IMG/VR virus record: IMGVR_UViG_2925939204_000003
Location: 1 to 32,291 of that record
DNA: 32,291 nt
Direction: 5' to 3' (one strand)
From: a virus
Taxonomy: Duplodnaviria > Heunggongvirae > Uroviricota > Caudoviricetes
Below, one piece after another: positions 5,402 through 32,291 of this stretch; the first letter of the stretch is position 1; every line of letters begins with the position of its first letter. The translations under genes were made by a program, and so were the position numbers. Below the pieces are notes generated by a model. That model ran no database searches. It saw nothing but the letters and a program-made list of their open reading frames with translations, and was not told the origin of the DNA.

Positions 5402-5459
5402 AAAAAGGGCGGCAGAGCAGTCACGGAGTAAAACTGATACCGCCAAACGTCACCAGAAA
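5402..5459 (-). ncRNA. dicF: DicF small RNA (53 nt, 5407..5459) plus 3' U-tract of its intrinsic terminator
   Basis: Reverse complement reads UUUCUGGUGACGUUUGGCGGUAUCAGUUUUACUCCGUGACUGCUCUGCCGCCC then UUUUU; lies between ydfC and dicB as in Qin. Confidence 0.8.
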
Positions 5460-10457: not shown

Positions 10458-10584
10458 TTTTATGGATCACCTTTCTGATTGATTTCATATTGGCGAGGTG
10501 ACGTGAGTTAAGTAGAATGGCTGCGGGTGCTTGAGGCTATCTGTCTCAGGCATGAACACTGAAAGGCAGATAGAGAAAAGCCCC

Positions 10585-10646
10585 AGTTAACATTACGCGT
10601 CCGGCAAGACGCTTAACATTAATCTGAGGCTCAATCTATGAACGGC
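10585..10646 (-). ncRNA. Predicted Sok-like antisense RNA of the hok locus
   Basis: Minus-strand promoter -35 TTGCCT (10676..10681) and -10 TAACCT (10653..10658) at 17-bp spacing, placed as in plasmid R1 hok/sok; extent of RNA approximate. Confidence 0.3.
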
Positions 10647-10694
10647 AAATCTAGGTTAGCCTCTTACGTGCCGAAAGGCAAGGAGAAGCAGGCT

Positions 10695-10850
10695 ATGAAG
10701 CAGCAAAAGGCGATGTTAATCGCCCTGATCGTCATCTGTTTAACCGTCATTGTGACGGCACTGGTAACGAGGAAAGACCTCTGCGAGGTACGAATCCGAA
10801 CCGGCCAGACGGAGGTCACTGTCTTCACAGCTTACGAACCTGAGGAGTAA
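10695..10850 (+). CDS. hok: Hok-family type I toxin (51 aa)
   Basis: MKQQKAMLIALIVICLTVIVTALVTRKDLCEVRIRTGQTEVTVFTAYEPEE matches Hok (HokD/RelF-like); SD AAGGAGAAG; conserved upstream leader motif TAGCCTCTTAC. Confidence 0.75.
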   Translation: MKQQKAMLIALIVICLTVIVTALVTRKDLCEVRIRTGQTEVTVFTAYEPEE

Positions 10851-13024: not shown

Positions 13025-13384
13025 ATGCGTATAGAGTTTGTTTTGCCTTATCCGCCGACGGTGAATACTTACTGGCGACGTCGTGGCAACACATATTTTG
13101 TATCAAAAGTCGGTGAGCGTTATCGCCGTGATGTGGCACTAATTGTTCGCCAGCAGCGGTTGAAATTAAACCTGTCCGGAAGGCTGGCAATAAAAATTAT
13201 TGCAGAGCCACCGGATAAGCGCCGCCGCGACCTGGACAATATCCTGAAGGCACCACTGGATGCGCTGACGCATGCCGGACTTCTCATAGACGACGAGCAG
13301 TTTGATGAAATCAATATTGTGCGCGGACTGCCTGTTCCTGGTGGTCGGCTGGGGATAAAAATCACAGAACTGGAGTGCGCATGA
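13025..13384 (+). CDS. rusA: Holliday junction resolvase RusA
   Basis: 119 aa with RRRDLDN catalytic motif, LPxPPSxN N-terminus and GGRL C-terminal motif. Confidence 0.8.
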   Translation: MRIEFVLPYPPTVNTYWRRRGNTYFVSKVGERYRRDVALIVRQQRLKLNLSGRLAIKIIAEPPDKRRRDLDNILKAPLDALTHAGLLIDDEQFDEINIVRGLPVPGGRLGIKITELECA

Positions 13385-14070
13385 ATAACCAGTATTTACA
13401 GTTTGTGCGTGAGCAGCTCATTATCGCTACCGCTGATTTGAGTGGGGCAACAAAAGGTCAGCTTGAAGCCTGGCAGGAGAATGCCATGTTTGATACAGGG
13501 CGTTACAGGCGTAAAAAAATCCGGTACCACGATGAAGTGACTGGAAGAATGATAACGCGGGATAGTCCACCGATACCGGGAAAACAATCACTGGCGAAAG
13601 GCTCATCAATTGCTCTGGTAAGTCAGGTTGAGTTTTCGACATCATCATGGCGACGGGCAGTTCTGTCTCTTGAAGAACATCATAAAGCCTGGTTGTTGTG
13701 GTGTTACAGCGGGAGTATTTGTTGGGAATATCAGATCGCGATAACACAGTGGGCGTGGAATGAATTTAATACTCAATCCGGTACCAGAAAAATTGCAGGG
13801 AAAACGCAGGAACGCCTGAAAAAATTAATCTGGCTGGCGGCGCAGGCAGTAAAAGCAGAACTTTTTGGTGGGGAAGGTTATGAATACCAGGAGCTGGCAT
13901 TACTGGCGGGAGTGACAACTAAAAACTGGTCCAAAACATTTACTCGTCACTGGGTTGCAATGAAACACATTTTTCACCGACTTGATAGTGAGGCTTTATT
14001 GTTTGTAATGAGAACACGTTCAAAACAAAAGGCGGCATTTTCAAAGCAAAGTGTTGCAAAAGTAGATTGA
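13381..14070 (+). CDS. Putative late-gene regulator at the Q antiterminator position
   Basis: Positional only: directly downstream of rusA, start overlaps rusA stop, immediately upstream of pR'/tR'-like elements and lysis genes; no recognised Q motif. Confidence 0.45.
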   Translation: MNNQYLQFVREQLIIATADLSGATKGQLEAWQENAMFDTGRYRRKKIRYHDEVTGRMITRDSPPIPGKQSLAKGSSIALVSQVEFSTSSWRRAVLSLEEHHKAWLLWCYSGSICWEYQIAITQWAWNEFNTQSGTRKIAGKTQERLKKLIWLAAQAVKAELFGGEGYEYQELALLAGVTTKNWSKTFTRHWVAMKHIFHRLDSEALLFVMRTRSKQKAAFSKQSVAKVD

Positions 14071-14082
14071 AAGGCATATATT
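14054..14082 (+). promoter_or_regulatory. Candidate late promoter pR': -35 TTGCAA, 17-bp spacer, -10 TATATT
   Basis: Near-consensus sigma70 promoter spanning the end of the Q-position gene. Confidence 0.5.
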
Positions 14083-14135
14083 TCATGCAAATCTGATATT
14101 TTGCCGATTTTGTACGTGATGGCAAAAGCAAACAA

Positions 14136-14160
14136 AACCCGCCCACAAGCGGGTTTTTTG
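14136..14160 (+). terminator. Intrinsic terminator (tR'-like)
   Basis: AACCCGC-ccacaa-GCGGGTT followed by TTTTTT, about 55 nt downstream of the candidate pR' start. Confidence 0.6.
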
Positions 14161-14264: not shown

Positions 14265-14340
14265 GGCCCTTTAGCTCAGTGGTGAGAGCGAGCGACTCAT
14301 AATCGCCAGGTCGCTGGTTCAAATCCAGCAAGGGCCACCA
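14265..14340 (+). tRNA. tRNA-Ile2 (anticodon CAU, lysidine type; ileX/ileZ-like)
   Basis: Clean cloverleaf; anticodon loop CUCAUAA; close to recalled E. coli ileX sequence. Confidence 0.8.
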
Positions 14341-14341
14341 G

Positions 14342-14418
14342 CCGCCACTAGCTCATCAGGAAAGAGCGTCAACCCTTTAAGTTGAGTGTGCGAGGTTCGA
14401 GTCCCCGGTGGCGGTCCA
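14342..14418 (+). tRNA. tRNA-like gene, anticodon ambiguous (loop CCUUUAA, nominal UUU); possibly degenerate
   Basis: Acceptor, D and anticodon stems pair; position 33 is C not U; one A-C mismatch in T-stem. Confidence 0.45.
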
Positions 14419-14420
14419 GT

Positions 14421-14496
<76 letters not shown>

Positions 14497-14499
14497 TAT

Positions 14500-14574
<75 letters not shown>

Positions 14575-14580
14575 GTTAGA

Positions 14581-14626
14581 GTCTTTCAGTCTGCGATGAT
14601 GGGAAATCCCGGAGTGACTGAAAGAC
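14581..14626 (+). other. Hairpin: 11-bp perfect inverted repeat GTCTTTCAGTC / GACTGAAAGAC with 24-nt loop containing an inner GGGA/TCCC stem
   Basis: Seen directly, just after tRNA-Gly. Confidence 0.5.
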
Positions 14627-14633
14627 GTTTAAG

Positions 14634-14706
14634 TTATGAATGATCGCCTTTTTTTGCAAAATTGCTGTGCAGAAATACTAACCTTCGGGCAGGCGATCAT
14701 TCATAA
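14634..14706 (+). other. 15-bp perfect inverted repeat TTATGAATGATCGCC / GGCGATCATTCATAA separated by 43 nt
   Basis: Seen directly in non-coding region between tRNAs and holin. Confidence 0.5.
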
Positions 14707-14866
14707 GCACTCTGCTTTTATTCCGATTAACTGTGGGTGGTTTGTTGGATAGAGTGCTTTCCTTTCTGTATATATCGTTTCGCCCGCTTTTGCGGTTTTT
14801 TCTTTTCAAATCCCTTTCATTTCTCAGTGTAAAACTACGCCATCCGTTATTTGCGGAGGTGAGGCT

Positions 14867-15082
14867 ATGAAATCCATGGACAAAATTTCAACGGGCATTG
14901 CCTACGGCACCTCCGCAGGCAGTGCTGGCTACTGGTTTTTACAGTGGCTTGATCAGGTCAGTCCGTCACAGTGGGCTGCGATTGGTGTACTGGGGAGTCT
15001 GGTTCTGGGCTTCCTGACTTATCTGACAAATCTGTACTTCAAAATCAGAGAAGACAAGCGTAAGGCTGCACGGGGAGAGTAA
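14867..15082 (+). CDS. S: Class II holin, phage 21 S21 pinholin type, dual-start (antiholin from M1, holin from M4 at 14876)
   Basis: [29 protein letters not shown].. matches recalled S21; two TM segments; Met-Lys-Ser-Met dual start. Confidence 0.8.
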
Positions 15083-15086
15083 TTCA

Positions 15087-15401
15087 ATGACTCAAAACTA
15101 TGAACTGATTGTGAAAGGGATCCGCAATTTTGAGAATAAAGTTACGGTAACTTTAGCGTTACGGGACAAAAAACGCTTTGACGGTGAAATTTTTGGCTTG
15201 GACATCTCGCTGGACCGTGTTGAAGGTGCCGCGCTGGAGTTTTATGAGGCAGCAGCCAGAAGGAGCATCAGACAGGTCTTCCTGGATGTTGCTGCCGGGT
15301 TATGTGAAGGGGACGAGCTGTTGCCAGAAACGCGCCCCTGTTCAGAGGCGCGGTATACCATAAAAATTAACAGTTCTGATAACTCGATTACAGGTTGTTA
15401 G
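15087..15401 (+). CDS. Hypothetical protein inserted between holin and endolysin
   Basis: 104 aa ORF with SD GGAGAG 8 nt upstream; no recognised family. Confidence 0.5.
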   Translation: MTQNYELIVKGIRNFENKVTVTLALRDKKRFDGEIFGLDISLDRVEGAALEFYEAAARRSIRQVFLDVAAGLCEGDELLPETRPCSEARYTIKINSSDNSITGC

Positions 15402-15456
15402 CTTTTTGCAGTTGGCTTTCCAGTATCTTTCATTGGTAGCATCCTGATAAATATCC

Positions 15457-15990
15457 ATGAGCGCAAAAATCAAATACGGCCTGTCAGCTGCTGTTCTGGC
15501 GCTGATTGCTGCAGGCGCGTCTGCTCCTCAAATACTTGACCAGTTTCTGGATGAAAAAGAGGGTAACCACACTACGGCATACCGCGATGGTTCCGGTATA
15601 TGGACCATCTGTCGTGGTGCCACAATGGTGGATGGTAAGCCCGTCATACCGGGAATGAAGCTGTCGAAGGAAAAATGCGACCAGGTTAACGCTATTGAAC
15701 GTGATAAGGCGCTGGCATGGGTGGAGCGCAATATTAAAGTACCACTGACCGAACCACAGAAAGCGGGTATAGCGTCATTCTGTCCCTATAACATTGGCCC
15801 CGGTAAGTGTTTCCCGTCGACGTTTTATAAGCGGCTGAATGCCGGTGATCGTAAGGGCGCATGCGAGGCGATTCGCTGGTGGATAAAAGATGGTGGGCGC
15901 GATTGCCGCATACGTTCAAATAACTGCTATGGACAGGTTATTCGTCGTGACCAGGAAAGCGCATTAGCCTGTTGGGGGATAGATCAGTGA
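15457..15990 (+). CDS. R: SAR (signal-anchor-release) endolysin, lysozyme family
   Basis: N-terminal Ala/Gly-rich segment [17 protein letters not shown] followed by lysozyme-like domain; pairs with pinholin. Confidence 0.8.
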
Positions 15991-16454
15991 GCAGAGTCGC
16001 AGCGATTATTTATACTCTGGTTATCTGCACCATCGTCTGCCTGTCGTGGGCGGTCAATCATTACCGTGATAACGCCATCGCCTACAAAGAACAGCGTGAT
16101 AAAAAAGTCAGTGAGCTGAAGCAGGCGACTGCCACCATCGCTGACATGCAACAGCGTCAGCGTGATGTTGCTGCGCTCGATGCAAAGTACTCGAGAGAAT
16201 TAGCCAATGCGAAAGCTGAAAATGAAACTCTGCGCGCTGATGTTGCCGCTGGTCGTAAGCGCCTGCGGGTCAATGCCAGTTGCTCCGCAGCCGTGCGTGA
16301 AGCCACCGGACCCACCAGCGTGGATAATGCAACCAGCCCCCGACTGGCAGACACCGCTGAACGGGATTATTTCACCCTCAGAGAACGGTTGATGACGATG
16401 CAGAAGCAACTGGAAGGGGCACAGCTATACATTCGTGAGCAATGTCTCAGATAA
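15987..16454 (+). CDS. Rz: Rz-like inner-membrane spanin
   Basis: GTG start overlapping endolysin stop (GTGA) with SD GGGGGA; N-terminal TM then coiled-coil-like region. Confidence 0.7.
16207..16392 (+). CDS. Rz1: Rz1-like outer-membrane lipoprotein spanin embedded in Rz in +1 frame
   Basis: Lipobox VVSA-C and Pro-rich mature region; entirely inside Rz. Confidence 0.65.
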
Positions 16455-16594
16455 AAAACGGCCAAGGATAATCCGCTAAAGATTCGCCGGTGGCGAAAGA
16501 GAGCCAAGGTGTCAACCTACGCTATTACTTATGATAATGCAACAGACGAAGCGGGACATTCAGGTGCATAACAAAGCGTGGCAGGTGAACTGCA

Positions 16595-16632: not shown

Positions 16633-17118
16633 TTATTTTGTGGTTTTGAAAAGTTTCATGTACTGATTGATAGGTTTTCCTGAGTAAGAATCTGTCCCTG
16701 GCTCAGGAGTATCAGATAAAACTTTTGCAGCTAATTTGTTGGAGGCTTGATTACCAACCCCGACAATAGCCTCTACATAGAATTCATTGAAGGAATTTCT
16801 AAATCCGTATTGCATTTCTTCAATGCTGGCGATGAGAAGTTGAGTACCGATGCCTTGCGCTTTATATTCATCGGCTACTGCATAGCCAACGCCAAAGCAT
16901 GGTTTACCTTCAACAAACTCTGCAGGGACATATATAGCAACACCTTTAACATTTTCTCCTTCAAAGAATGCATAAGTAAACCGTGGCGTACCCTCTGCAT
17001 CATCCAAAAGCACCTTCATATTTGGGTGAACTATGCATGGTGAAGGCTTAATCAGACCATTAGAAAAGGCGTATTGAAAACTAATTAATGAGTCTGTTGG
17101 ATCAACGAGTTCTGGCAT
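16633..17118 (-). CDS. GNAT family N-acetyltransferase (cargo gene, opposite strand)
   Basis: 161 aa; acetyl-CoA binding motif AQGIGTQLL; AT-rich; flanked by AT-rich intergenic DNA. Confidence 0.6.
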   Translation of the reverse strand: MPELVDPTDSLISFQYAFSNGLIKPSPCIVHPNMKVLLDDAEGTPRFTYAFFEGENVKGVAIYVPAEFVEGKPCFGVGYAVADEYKAQGIGTQLLIASIEEMQYGFRNSFNEFYVEAIVGVGNQASNKLAAKVLSDTPEPGTDSYSGKPINQYMKLFKTTK

Positions 17119-17570: not shown

Positions 17571-18122
17571 ATGCCATCACGAATCCCACGCGCCTGCCGT
17601 AAGCGTGGATGTGCAGGTACAACCACAGACAGTTCTGGTTACTGCGATAAACATCGTGGCGAAGGATGGGTACAGCATCAACGCGGACTGAGCCGCCACC
17701 AGCGTGGCTACTTCCTGCACTGTTACCGTCAGTTAATGAGGATAGATGTGATGACTAAAAATATCCGTAATCTGGCACTGGCAGCGATGTCGGGGTTTCG
17801 CCATAAAACTGTTGATGTGCCTGAATGGGAAGGGGCAACGGTTGTATTACGGGAACCTTCTGCAGAAGCCTGGTTGCGCTGGCAGGAGATCGTTAAAGCA
17901 AAAGATGATGAGACACCGTTATCCGTTGCGGAGCTCGCCCGCCGAAATCTGGAAGCGGATGTTGAACTGTTCATCGATGTTCTGTGTGATACCGGACTGC
18001 AACCTGTATTTTCAGTGGATGATCGTGAACAGGTGATTGCCGTGTATGGCCCGGTGCATGCGCGGCTTCTTCGGCAGTCTCTGGAACTGATCAGTGATGC
18101 CGGCGAGGTTAAAAAAAAGTAG
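17571..18122 (+). CDS. Tail assembly chaperone G-like, with N-terminal Cys-rich extension; alternative start 17751
   Basis: Directly upstream of tape measure; ends in slippery A-AAA-AAG then TAG; both 17571 (SD GGTGAGG) and 17751 (SD GAGGA) are plausible starts. Confidence 0.55.
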   Translation: MPSRIPRACRKRGCAGTTTDSSGYCDKHRGEGWVQHQRGLSRHQRGYFLHCYRQLMRIDVMTKNIRNLALAAMSGFRHKTVDVPEWEGATVVLREPSAEAWLRWQEIVKAKDDETPLSVAELARRNLEADVELFIDVLCDTGLQPVFSVDDREQVIAVYGPVHARLLRQSLELISDAGEVKKK

Positions 18123-18424
18123 CGCTTCCGGGGATGCGTTTTCTGATGATGCTGGCGCTCAGGATGGGGCGCACATTGTCAGAGTTACGCCGGGAAATGT
18201 CCGCATCAGAAATCATGATGTGGGCAGAGTTTGACAGGTTCAGCCCGCTGGGGGACGAACGGGCTGATATCCGGGCTGCCCAGATTGTTTCAGCTGTTTA
18301 CGGTGCGCAGGGGGTCAAAGTGCCACTGAATGATGCGCTTCTTCAGTGGGAGAAGGAGCAGACAGAAGGCGTATCAGATCCATTTGCTGGACTGGAAAAC
18401 GCGCTTTTAATAGTGTCTCAGTGA
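17571..18424 (+). CDS. Tail assembly chaperone GT-like fusion made by programmed -1 frameshift at 18113..18119
   Basis: The -1 frame is open from the slippery site through ORF 18134..18424, mirroring lambda G/GT. Confidence 0.5.
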
Positions 18425-18464: not shown

Positions 18465-21400
18465 ATGAGTGTGGCGACATTACGTGAACTGATTATTAAA
18501 ATCTCGGCAAATTCCCGGTCATTCCAGTCAGAGATCTCCCGGGCTTCGCGTATGGGGCAGGATTACTACCGTACCATGCAGAACGGAGGCCGGCAGTCCG
18601 CTGCTGCATCCCGTGAAATGCGGCGTGCACTGGCAGAAGTGACGGATCAGATAAATACAGCTAAATCTTCGGCACTAAACATGGCGGGGGCATTTGCCGG
18701 GGCTTTTGCTACCGGTCATCTTATTTCTCTCGCCGATGAGTGGAATTCAGTAAATGCCCGTCTGAAGCAGGCCTCACAGTCCAGTGATGATTTTCAGTCA
18801 TCACAGCGTGAATTAATGGCGATCAGCCAGAGAACGGGGACGGCTTTTTCTGATAACGCCAGCCTTTTTGCCCGCTCTGCAGCTTCCATGCGGGAGTATG
18901 GTTACAGTTCTGAGGAGGTACTGAAAGTCACCGAGGCGATCTCCACGGGCCTGAAATTATCCGGTGCCAGTACAGCAGAAGCCAGTTCGGTGATCACGCA
19001 GTTCAGTCAGGCTCTGGCGCAGGGAGTGCTGCGCGGTGAAGAGTTTAACTCGGTGAATGAGAACGGCGATCGTGTTATTCGTGCTCTGGCTGCGGGAATG
19101 GGAGTTGCCCGTAAGGATCTGAAGGCCATGGCGGATAACGGAAAGTTGACCGCCGATAAGGTTGTTCCTGCACTGATTAGTCAGCTTGGGGCATTACGTG
19201 ATGAATATGCGGCAATGCCTGATACGGTTTCATCCTCTGCAACCAAAGTTGAAAACGCCTTTATGGCCTGGGTTGGTGGTGCGAACGAGGCAAGCGGAGT
19301 GACGAAGACGCTCTCCGGTGTGCTGAATGGTCTTGCAGGCAATATTGACACCGTGGCAACCGCTGCCGGTGCTCTGGTTGCCGTCGGGGTAGCCCGATAT
19401 TTTGGCAATATGGCGTCGTCTGCTGGATCTGCAACTGCCGGATTAATTACTGCAGCCAGAAACGAAGTGGCTCTTGCTGAAGCGCAACTTCGGGGGACAC
19501 AGATAGCAACCGCCAGGGCGCGTGCGGCGGTTTATCGTGCGCAACAGGCGGTTGTTGCTGCTCGCGGTACCGAAAGGCAGGCCGCAGCAGAAGCGAAGCT
19601 GACAGCTGCCCAGGCGTCACTTACCCGTAATATTGCGGCCAGAACAGCGGCACAGACAACGCTGAATACTGTCACGTCAGTGGGGAGTCGTCTGTTAAGT
19701 GGTGCGCTGGGGTTGGTTGGTGGTGTGCCGGGACTCGTCATGCTGGGGGCGACGGCCTGGTACACGATGTATCAGAATCAGGAGCAGGCCAGAGAATCTG
19801 CACGCCAGTATGCCGCAACAATCGACGAAATTCGCCAGAAAACGTCGGCAATGTCGCTTCCTGAAGCGTCAGATAATGAGGAAAAGACGCGGCAGGCACT
19901 TGATGAGCAAAACAGGTTAATTGACGAGCAGAAAAGTAAGATTAAATCCTTACAGGAAAAAATTGCTGGCTATCAGTATGTGCTGGCAAACCCGGGCTGG
20001 ACAACCGATAACGGTTTTATGATTAACCACATGACGTCGGTAAAAACTGTCACAGAAGGGCTTGCAGAAGCAACAAATCAACTGGCAGTTGAACAGTCCC
20101 GTCTCACACAAATGCAGGGCAAAGCGCAATCCATTCAGGATGTGCTTGCCGGGCTGGAGGAGCGACGGGTGGCGTTGATCCGTCAACAGGCCGCGGAACA
20201 AAACAAAGCGTATCAGTCCCTGTTGATCATGAATGGGCAGCATACCGAGTTTAATCGCCTTCTCGGGCTCGGTAATGAATTACTTCAGCAGCGACAGGGG
20301 CTGGTGAATGTACCGTTACGGCTACCACAGGCAACCCTGGATGATAAACAGCAGACTGCACTGAATAACAGCGAGCGCGAACTGGCTCTGTCCCGCCTGA
20401 AGGGGGAAGCCCGTGAGCGTGCCCGCCTGGGTTATGCTGCGGATGATCTCGGCTTTGTGGGAGAGGCGTATCAGACAGCCAGACAGAATTATATCAATAA
20501 CTCACTGGATGCCTGGCGAAATAACCAGGCAAATAAACCCAAAGCGCATAAAAAGACCGAAGCGGAAAAAACAGAAGATATTTATAAACGGCTGATTAAA
20601 CAGCAAAAAGAACAAATAGCACTGGCAGGGCAGAATACTGAACTGGCTAAGATGAAATATCAGGTCAGTCAGGGCGAATTATCAACCCTGTCAGAAGCGC
20701 AGAAAAAAACGCTTTTGCAGAATGCAGCACTCATCGACCAGAAAAAGATTCGTGAGCAGCTTGCTGCGTATGAAAGCAGCCTGGCGGACAGTAATGCCAG
20801 TGCCCGGGCATCTGACGAAGCGCAGTTGCTGGGATATGGTGAAGGCTCACGGATGCGTGAACGACTCCAGGAAATGTGGAGTATCCGGCAGGCGTTTGAG
20901 CAGAAAAATAACGAGCTGCTGAGACAGTATCAGGCCGGAGAAATTGAAGAAGCTCTGTGGAAACAGGAGAAAGAACTGAATAAAAAATATCTGGAAGAGC
21001 GTCTCAGCGATCAGCAGGATTATTATGCAAAGGCCGATGCTTTACGTAATAACTGGAATGCCGGACTCCAGGAGGGACTGACCAACTGGGCAGACAGTGC
21101 CACCGATTATGCTTCACAGGCGGCAGATGCTGTCGTTTCCACGATGGACGGGCTGGTATCAAATATTTCCGATGCACTGGCCGGGAATGTTGTGGACTGG
21201 AGGAACTGGGGGAGTTCAGTTCTCCGGGAAGTTTCAAAAATTCTGATGAATGCAGCCATTGTTAACGGACTGAAATCACTCTCCGGTGCCGGAGGGTGGC
21301 TTGGTACGGTCGGCGGATGGATTTCGGGGGCAGTGGCAAACGCAAAAGGTGGTGTTTACACATCGGCAAATCTGAGTGCTTACAGTAACACTATTGTGGA

Positions 21401-21698
21401 TACACCGACGTATTTTGCTTTTGCGAAAGGTGCCGGGTTGATGGGCGAGGCCGGGCCCGAAGCAATCATGCCACTGACACGGGCAGCGGACGGCTCTCTT
21501 GGGGTCAGGGCCATTGGAAATGTGAATGGTGGCGGTGGATTTGTTTATTCTCCCGTGTATCACATCAGCATTCAGAATCAAGGGAGCAATGGCGAGATAG
21601 ATGCGCGCTCAGCCAGGGGACTGGTGGATCTGATCGACAGCAGGGTTGTGTCAATTATGCAGTCATCGCGTCGGGATGGAGGATTGTACAGTGCCTGA
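18465..21698 (+). CDS. Tail tape measure protein (lambda H-like)
   Basis: 1077 aa, coiled-coil-rich, C-terminus RRDGGLYSA like lambda H; start could be GTG 18471 (better SD spacing). Confidence 0.85.
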   Translation: MSVATLRELIIKISANSRSFQSEISRASRMGQDYYRTMQNGGRQSAAASREMRRALAEVTDQINTAKSSALNMAGAFAGAFATGHLISLADEWNSVNARLKQASQSSDDFQSSQRELMAISQRTGTAFSDNASLFARSAASMREYGYSSEEVLKVTEAISTGLKLSGASTAEASSVITQFSQALAQGVLRGEEFNSVNENGDRVIRALAAGMGVARKDLKAMADNGKLTADKVVPALISQLGALRDEYAAMPDTVSSSATKVENAFMAWVGGANEASGVTKTLSGVLNGLAGNIDTVATAAGALVAVGVARYFGNMASSAGSATAGLITAARNEVALAEAQLRGTQIATARARAAVYRAQQAVVAARGTERQAAAEAKLTAAQASLTRNIAARTAAQTTLNTVTSVGSRLLSGALGLVGGVPGLVMLGATAWYTMYQNQEQARESARQYAATIDEIRQKTSAMSLPEASDNEEKTRQALDEQNRLIDEQKSKIKSLQEKIAGYQYVLANPGWTTDNGFMINHMTSVKTVTEGLAEATNQLAVEQSRLTQMQGKAQSIQDVLAGLEERRVALIRQQAAEQNKAYQSLLIMNGQHTEFNRLLGLGNELLQQRQGLVNVPLRLPQATLDDKQQTALNNSERELALSRLKGEARERARLGYAADDLGFVGEAYQTARQNYINNSLDAWRNNQANKPKAHKKTEAEKTEDIYKRLIKQQKEQIALAGQNTELAKMKYQVSQGELSTLSEAQKKTLLQNAALIDQKKIREQLAAYESSLADSNASARASDEAQLLGYGEGSRMRERLQEMWSIRQAFEQKNNELLRQYQAGEIEEALWKQEKELNKKYLEERLSDQQDYYAKADALRNNWNAGLQEGLTNWADSATDYASQAADAVVSTMDGLVSNISDALAGNVVDWRNWGSSVLREVSKILMNAAIVNGLKSLSGAGGWLGTVGGWISGAVANAKGGVYTSANLSAYSNTIVDTPTYFAFAKGAGLMGEAGPEAIMPLTRAADGSLGVRAIGNVNGGGGFVYSPVYHISIQNQGSNGEIDARSARGLVDLIDSRVVSIMQSSRRDGGLYSA

Positions 21699-31710: not shown

Positions 31711-32291
31711 TGGCATTCAGAATGAGTGAACAAGCACGGACCATAAAAATTTATAACCTGCTGGCCGGAACTAATGAATTTATTGGTGAAGGTGACGCAT
31801 ATATTCCGCCTCATACAGGTCTGCCTGCAAACAGTACCGATATTGCACCGCCAGATATTCCGGCAGGCTTCGTGGCTGTTTTCAACAGTGATGAGGCATC
31901 GTGGCATCTCGTTGAAGACCATCGTGGTAAAACGGTCTATGACGTGGCTTCCGGCGACGCGTTATTTATTTCTGAACTCGGCTCATTACCGGAAAATGTC
32001 ACCTGGTTATCCCCGGAAGGGGAGTTTCAGAAGTGGAACGGCACAGCCTGGGTGAAAGATGCAGAAGCAGAAAAACTGTTCCGGATCCGGGAGGCGGAAG
32101 AAACAAAAAACAGCCTGATGCAGGTAGCCAGCGAGCATATTGCGCCGCTTCAGGATGCTGCAGATCTGGAAATTGCAACGGAGGAAGAAACCTCATTGCT
32201 GGAAGCCTGGAAAAAGTATCGGGTGTTGCTGAACCGTGTTAATACAACAACTGCACCGGATATTGAATGGCCAGTAGCACCTATAGGGTAA
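31710..32291 (+). CDS. tfa: Tail fibre assembly protein Tfa
   Basis: [37 protein letters not shown] matches recalled lambda Tfa; start overlaps stf stop (TAATG). Confidence 0.85.

Follow-up and report, generated by a model that had tools for sequence, protein, structure and literature searches.

The open reading frame (ORF) at positions 15087–15401 on the plus strand of a 32,291-nucleotide (nt) stretch of Caudoviricetes DNA (IMG/VR record IMGVR_UViG_2925939204_000003, positions 1 to 32,291; the whole stretch is called the window below) is a real gene and no chance ORF. With high confidence in its family membership, it is the ydfR of a Qin-like defective lambdoid prophage, and it encodes a 104-amino-acid (aa) protein of the YdfR/DUF1327 family. 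A first-pass annotation of the window had described an unassigned and unusual ORF, well initiated but of no recognisable family, which interrupts a lysis cassette between a pinholin and a signal-arrest-release (SAR) endolysin and might be a moron or a modulator of lysis timing. The start and the placement are confirmed; the supposed lack of a family is refuted. Gene, family, and placement are already catalogued, and the finding is real but ordinary. As for what the protein does, the favoured account is an accessory YdfR/DUF1327 protein, made late in infection, that binds RNase E or RNA; it is held tentatively, at slightly under an even chance.

A ydfR gene behind the holin

The ORF scores 128.9 bits against the Pfam family DUF1327 (PF07041; E=8.3e-38), for which the curated gathering threshold is 25 bits, and its residues 1–96 align to model positions 1–90 of 93. 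It matches PHROG 2735 from end to end (E=2e-54). The 315-nt gene is present as an identical copy in many RefSeq E. coli chromosomes, where the product is WP_000193292.1, “DUF1327 domain-containing protein”. DNA matches of 100% identity carry the DUF1327 annotation in RefSeq, and E. coli genome annotations call the matching gene “DUF1327 domain-containing/YdfR family protein”. A scan of the ORF against NCBIfam matched no family, and the anti-phage defence models of PADLOC-DB gave no match at E up to 1.

The ATG lies 4 nt past the stop codon of the holin gene (15080–15082). A strong Shine-Dalgarno sequence, GGGGAGAG (15072–15079, plus strand), is embedded in the last holin codons, 7 nt 5′ of this ATG, and is conserved in a junction alignment of the window, phage 933W, K-12, and BP-4795. 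The holin itself (14867–15082, plus strand; 71 aa) is an S21-type class II holin of the pinholin type (PF04971, E=1.4e-35), with an MKSM dual-start motif and 76% identity to 933W S. On the 3′ side lies an endolysin of the RrrQ/933W-R type (15457–15990, plus strand; 177 aa; Phage_lysozyme, PF00959; 93% identical to 933W R), which has a SAR-like hydrophobic N-terminus: its first ~27 residues form its most hydrophobic stretch, and its hydropathy peaks at residues 9–27. Rz and Rz1 follow. The first-pass placement of the ORF between pinholin and SAR endolysin is thus correct.

K-12 YdfR (b1555, UniProt P76160) is encoded in the Qin prophage in the same order as in the window, essQ (holin)–ydfR–rrrQ (lysozyme)–rzpQ/rzoQ. 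The window protein is 64% identical to it overall and 81% identical (58/72) in residues 1–72, the region reported to contact RNase E. The tails differ (codons 73–103 in K-12, 73–104 in the window), and whereas K-12 ydfR overlaps rrrQ by 4 nt, the window gene is separated from its endolysin by a 55-nt scar. All DUF1327 motifs are found in the window protein, namely Y5, L7, G47, the Y53–E54 pair (“YE”) at the start of the helix, and A57. In a family alignment of 27 sequences, which reaches down to 25% identity and was used both for the AlphaFold core model and for motif conservation, Y53–E54 is invariant and the other four positions are nearly so. Pfam score, core motifs, and a genomic placement like that of K-12 ydfR all make the protein a member of the family. 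Codon 37 (15195–15197) encodes Gly (FGLD) here, in place of the usual Asp (FDLD) of nearly all close family members; the Gly37 allele is common to the window and the loci L023, L025, and L039.

The product is an acidic, predicted soluble protein of 11.6 kDa (pI 5.0; grand average of hydropathy −0.23). No transmembrane segment is predicted in it: the maximum 19-residue Kyte-Doolittle value is 0.75, versus 1.7–1.8 for the holin and the endolysin N-terminus. The conserved DUF1327 core (residues 1–76; 15087–15314, plus strand), as delimited by AlphaFold model mc9f816793e15, the alignment, and the ratio of nonsynonymous to synonymous substitution rates (dN/dS), is modelled as three strands (residues 5–14, 18–27, and 34–43) followed by a helix (50–76), with a predicted local distance difference test score (pLDDT) of 80–94. 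The C-terminal tail (residues 77–104; 15315–15398, plus strand), which ends in YTIKINSSDNSITGC, is variable across the family but conserved within its own tail type, and its pLDDT is below 50. The shortest DUF1327 homologues are free-standing cores of 72–76 aa, and the E. coli group has the core joined at about residue 72–76 to many alternative tails; the proteins at the loci examined are 72, 103, 104, 114, 116, 174, 183, 243, and 268 aa long.

Core and tail are both under purifying selection. Pairwise dN/dS of the core is 0.2–0.45 among alleles that are 54–94% identical, and that of the window tail type is 0.23–0.41 against the two diverged alleles L099 and L097, a comparison of few codons and noisy. 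The reality of the gene follows from these ratios and from the homologues at 25–35% identity, whose predicted fold is the same. No PDB sequence matched the family profile at E up to 10, and in Foldseek searches with the AlphaFold models (n=2) no viral model of BFVD matched at E of 0.001 or better. A profile search across 1.84 billion representative proteins, run without filters, recovered only 80 clusters and no tie to a larger annotated superfamily; outside the Enterobacteriaceae the family is tiny. Fold resemblances to the double-stranded RNA-binding domain and to Dip were dismissed as noise. Dip (gp37) of phage phiKZ is a phage inhibitor of the RNA degradosome.

Distribution and accessory status of the gene

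The gene is neither unassigned nor unusual but belongs to a very common family. By megablast, 4242 of 5426 complete E. coli genomes contain a DNA match to the ORF, and in 2093 of them at least 80% of the ORF is covered. A tblastn search with the 75-residue core recovered 101 deposited phage records, all of Escherichia phages; phage records with DUF1327 include H-19B, BP-4795, mEp460, and many Shiga toxin (Stx) phages that convert for Stx1a and Stx2c, with a few for Stx2a. In BP-4795 and mEp460 the gene likewise lies between S and R. Judged by source names, the taxonomic range of DUF1327 covers Escherichia, Shigella, E. albertii, and Salmonella, plus metagenome contigs.

Cassettes of this type had been expected by the first-pass annotation to run without interruption. 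For the loci with the closest holins the reverse is the rule. The comparison set was drawn from IMG/VR and comprised the 80 loci whose S21-type holins come closest to that of the window (identity of 90% or more); 50 of them carry DUF1327, always at the identical offset of 4 nt after the holin stop (50/50); the interrupted cassette is the majority state of this set. K-12 Qin and the 101 phage records also carry the gene at this site. The expectation holds for phage 933W, in which S abuts R without DUF1327. The gene travels with the endolysin: in 47 of the 50 DUF1327 loci the contig extends far enough to see what follows, and all 47 have an RrrQ-type endolysin, 88–100% identical, whereas 28 of the 30 loci without DUF1327 have a different lysozyme (31–35% identical) directly after the holin. 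At Salmonella-type loci DUF1327 occurs with a different holin family (PF16080) and the same lysozyme type.

The R start codon of 933W lies 4 nt past the end of S and is preceded by the same GGGGAGAG-TAA motif. Because 933W R uses the same Shine-Dalgarno sequence and spacing, DUF1327 can be said to take the initiation site of the first gene after the holin. The gene is accessory and, as the natural variants show, dispensable for lysis; confidence in its accessory status is high. This natural presence/absence polymorphism, 933W on one side and the DUF1327 cassettes on the other, is the reason for regarding it as an accessory gene and not as a component of the holin-endolysin-spanin system.

Distant DUF1327 copies are free-standing cores of 72–76 aa that lie outside the holin-endolysin slot. 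They are found between tail genes L and K (loci L086–L089), between the end of the tape-measure gene and a gpM-like gene (L085), after a gene for a tail assembly protein I-like product (L093 and L094), right after Rz (L095), and upstream of holins, adjoining a HicB-like gene (L090). Occurrence of the same domain at several unrelated late-operon junctions is a moron-like trait, and with lambdoid morons such as bor, lom, and the GNAT gene of this prophage the ORF shares a patchy presence among collinear cassettes and dispensability for the flanking function. Classic morons are flanked by a promoter and a terminator of their own, and their expression takes place in the lysogen. Unlike them, the window gene has neither and is placed behind the holin, and it should be expressed only late. 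The term moron proposed at first pass is therefore apt for the patchy distribution, the absence from 933W, and the distant copies at unrelated junctions, but not for the transcription unit.

A tentative link to RNase E and the competing explanations

According to the favoured account, the gene would lie in a Q-dependent late transcript, and the protein would be made late and coupled to holin translation, starting from the holin-embedded Shine-Dalgarno sequence that the endolysin gene uses in phages without ydfR. The protein, small and acidic, would be expected to stay cytoplasmic and to act as an accessory, moron-like passenger of the cassette, probably without being a working part of the holin-endolysin-spanin machinery. 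Its strand-strand-strand-helix core (residues 1–72) may bind the N-terminal catalytic half of host RNase E, associated RNA, or both. Through such an association the phage could tune RNA decay late in infection, and the variable C-terminal tail may add specificity.

The experimental basis is a study of K-12 YdfR (Göpel et al., RNA Biol 2026, PMC13232886). In an E. coli two-hybrid library screen YdfR(1-72) was isolated three times, and its signal was stronger with RNase E constructs that hold the catalytic half. Strep-YdfR copurified chromosomally encoded Rne(1-598)-FLAG, and abundant DNase-resistant nucleic acid was found in the YdfR eluate, pointing to copurification of RNA (PMC13232886). As a precedent the authors named T4 Srd, a phage protein that acts on RNase E through its N-terminal half; as summarised in their paper, Srd binds this half and stimulates the decay of host mRNA (Qi et al. 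2015, via PMC13232886). Srd resembles YdfR as a small cytoplasmic phage protein directed at the RNase E catalytic half, and might be a functional analogue if the YdfR interaction is real. It differs in coming from an early gene of a virulent phage and in acting strongly on host mRNA, whereas YdfR overproduction barely altered the transcriptome. The family and structure searches with the window protein revealed no link to Srd, and no direct comparison with Srd was made. RapZ is another protein of the class that binds the N-terminal domain of RNase E.

Several observations weigh against extending this activity to the window protein. Full-length T25-YdfR was positive only with Rne(1-597), and overproduction of K-12 YdfR changed few transcripts and left growth unaffected (PMC13232886). 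The RNase E link comes from one study, by two-hybrid assay and in vivo copurification, and the contact could be bridged by RNA, because that study has no nuclease-treated in vitro pull-down for YdfR (PMC13232886). A pI of 5.0 is unusual for a direct RNA binder. Within the core, 14 of 72 residues differ from K-12 YdfR, among them G37, where the close family has D. Finally, in a prophage without head and terminase genes, a role that benefits the phage may no longer operate. RNase E/RNA-binding activity of the window protein, argued by analogy with K-12 YdfR, is rated as possible but rather unlikely when taken on its own.

Other data on K-12 ydfR are sparse. The gene is essentially silent under standard conditions, with almost no RNA-seq reads (PMC13232886). 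In an overexpression screen ydfR raised the minimum inhibitory concentration of streptomycin 3-fold. A literature search on DUF1327/YdfR found no lysis study, and most matches to “YDFR” concerned a melanoma cell line.

An unlikely alternative starts from the DNA downstream of the gene. The 55-nt spacer between DUF1327 and the endolysin (15402–15456) is a deletion scar. Compared with the related loci L097 (3309–3678) and L099 (3312–3682), it consists of the two ends of a 367-nt interval, with about 312 nt gone and the junction near 15441/15442. Of the 5426 E. coli genomes, 343 have the window-type junction and 102 the form without the deletion. What remains on the minus strand (15398–15441) is the end of a convergent 79-aa ORF (p79, PHROG 21218), that is, its last 13 codons, LPMKDTGKPTAKS, and the stop; the full ORF is found in L097, L098, and L101. 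The remnant's stop overlaps the DUF1327 stop, as it does in the full 79-aa ORF. DUF1327 could accordingly be the orphaned half of a two-gene moron, working with a convergent ORF whose deletion here has reduced or abolished its role; an example of such a pair would be a function expressed in the lysogen together with a late-expressed counterpart.

The recurrence of convergent ORFs favours such a pairing. One directly follows DUF1327 in all distant contexts examined (L085–L095), where the minus-strand ORFs belong to PHROG 25324, 18578, and 10490, and in three variants of the slot between holin and endolysin. In the first of these, 103/104-aa DUF1327 forms are followed by p79 (L097–L101). In the second, 114-aa forms ending in TPPKW are followed by a 90-aa ORF with a strong Shine-Dalgarno sequence (p90, PHROG 2411; L019 and other loci with the endolysin at +696). 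In the third, a 72-aa DUF1327 is followed by a 99-aa ORF (p99, PHROG 25324; L040). The partners fall into at least five families, of 79 aa (PHROG 21218), 90 aa (2411), 93 aa (10490), 99 aa (25324), and 182 aa (18578).

The same partners also tell against a fixed pair. No homology was detected among p79, p90, p93, p99, and p182 (hhalign probability 1.5% or less), a weak negative given the shallow alignments, and a set of unrelated neighbours fits an insertion hotspot too; the pattern could reflect either a functional gene pair or such a hotspot. Moreover, p79 has in-frame stops in two of the four distinct sequences compared, and DUF1327 often stands without a partner (in K-12, in the 116-aa forms, and in the window type), with dN/dS still <0.5. 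A combination of this idea with the RNase E proposal, in which a late 8-kDa RNase E/RNA-binding core with swappable tails and an unrelated convergent partner gene would form a “core plus variable partner” module, is considered improbable.

Direct control of lysis, as suggested at first pass, is also an improbable explanation. It supposes that the protein is a soluble regulator that tunes timing through the pinholin or the SAR endolysin; it might restrain or chaperone the endolysin, or the gene might cut endolysin translation by displacing R from the strong Shine-Dalgarno sequence. The invariant start 4 nt after the holin stop agrees with this, as does the covariation with endolysin type and not holin type, which extends to the Salmonella-type loci, where the holin family is swapped and the lysozyme type kept. 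Yet covariation with the endolysin can be mere linkage, 933W lyses with the same S and R types without the gene, and distant homologues lie in tail-gene clusters, far from lysis genes.

In cassettes with the gene, R stands behind a leader without an evident Shine-Dalgarno sequence, which also suits a regulatory role. In the window the endolysin start at 15457 follows the conserved, AT-rich leader TCCTGATAAATATCC-ATG (15442–15456), which is kept across the spacer variants. Where DUF1327 is present, the endolysin lacks the holin-embedded Shine-Dalgarno sequence used in 933W, and this could lower or uncouple its translation.

The one phenotype that points towards the envelope comes from a genome-wide screen, in which the Keio deletion of K-12 ydfR was among the envelope mutants positive with chlorophenol red-β-D-galactopyranoside. 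It may, however, be a polar effect of the resistance cassette, suspected because K-12 ydfR overlaps rrrQ by 4 nt and the cassette promoter would read into rrrQ. K-12 YdfR could be overproduced without harm to growth, and RNase E is the one partner reported for it (PMC13232886).

A comparison with known regulators also tells against lysis control. Membrane and signal segments are absent from the window protein, and neither a membrane or periplasmic location nor constant presence with a cognate holin or endolysin, as would mark an antiholin or lysis-timing regulator, was found. The lambda S107 and S21-71 antiholins, T4 RI, the Mu gp25 releasin, and, less certainly, P1 LydB are located in the membrane or the periplasm and contact either the holin or the SAR endolysin. 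Like the window gene, the genes of these regulators lie within or next to the holin-endolysin pair and are coexpressed late, but the window protein differs from them in having no hydrophobic segment, and searches of Pfam, NCBIfam, and PHROGs revealed no relation to them.

That the gene is a functionless relic, a decaying passenger of a defective prophage with no useful product, is highly improbable: the missing terminase, portal, and capsid genes, the near absence of K-12 ydfR reads under standard growth (PMC13232886), and the many truncated or fused variants in databases are outweighed by purifying selection on core and tail, an intact ORF that is identical in many unrelated strains, retention in the functional phages mEp460, BP-4795, and H-19B, and a strong, conserved Shine-Dalgarno sequence.

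Late operon, prophage setting, and meaning

The late expression assumed in the favoured RNase E account fits the layout of the region. The gene for antiterminator Q (13375–14070, plus strand; PF06323, E=1.3e-89) lies upstream of the cassette, and Q would drive late-operon read-through into the lysis genes. A consensus scan yielded a candidate late promoter, TTGCAA-17-TATATT (14054–14082, plus strand), and a candidate terminator, a hairpin followed by T6, is seen in the sequence at 14134–14159 (plus strand). By position only, the two sites appear to be placed like pR′ and tR′ of lambda. The hairpin begins 64 nt 3′ of the Q stop, is GC-rich, and has A4 and T6 flanks, and it could terminate in both directions. 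Between holin and Rz (14600–16500, plus strand) the consensus scan found no promoter-like or terminator-like site. To judge from position, the cassette would fit a Q-dependent late operon.

Four tRNA genes were found by ARAGORN between Q and the holin (14265–14574): Met-CAT, Lys-TTT, Thr-TGT, and Gly-TCC. The Met-CAT gene is tRNA-Ile in the RefSeq annotation and is probably of the lysidine-modified type. The interval between Q and the holin is the site of tRNAs and toxin genes in Stx phages.

Behind the endolysin, the Rz spanin occupies 15987–16454 (plus strand; PF03245, E=1.9e-49), with the start as annotated in RefSeq for the identical locus (the mechanical ORF runs from 15972), and the Rz1 lipoprotein spanin is embedded in it (16207–16392, plus strand; PF06085, E=1.4e-18). 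After Rz/Rz1 only a GNAT acetyltransferase gene (16633–17118, minus strand) and a 66-aa ORF precede the tail genes, which comprise a tail assembly chaperone (17571–18122), a gpT-like gene (18134–18424), and the tape measure gene (18465–21698).

The prophage is Qin-like, with DUF968, RusA, and Q upstream of the cassette. Rfam matches comprise DicF RNA (5407–5458, minus strand), sok antitoxin RNA (10525–10700, plus strand), which adjoins a hokD-type toxin gene, and an IS009 small RNA element (32053–32251, plus strand), and they support the Qin-like identity. K-12 Qin and the window prophage both carry DicF, sok/hokD, DUF968, RusA, and Q. No hidden RNA element was found in the region of the ORF, since Rfam gave only the tRNAs, DicF, sok, and IS009, all elsewhere in the window. 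The genes annotated at a near-identical locus in strain AR_0128 include dicB, ydfB, ydfC, and hokD; this locus has HNH and terminase genes, while other head genes and some tail genes are missing. No terminase, portal, or capsid gene was found in the window, and the prophage looks defective.

The ORF of the window matters little in itself, being a routinely annotated member of a known family in its typical placement. The wider interest lies with DUF1327, a family of no established function whose gene lies in a prophage lysis cassette in about 78% of the complete E. coli genomes. The recurrent convergent partners and swappable tails are a lead for comparative genomics. If the improbable module of core and variable partner were true, it would be an unrecognised system that couples lysogen-expressed cargo to a late regulator of host RNA decay, and the window would hold a degenerate copy of it, its partner lost by the 312-nt deletion. 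If the association with RNase E is real and relevant late in infection, DUF1327 would exemplify contact between a temperate phage and the catalytic half of RNase E, with possible consequences for how stable late transcripts are in Stx-converting phages.

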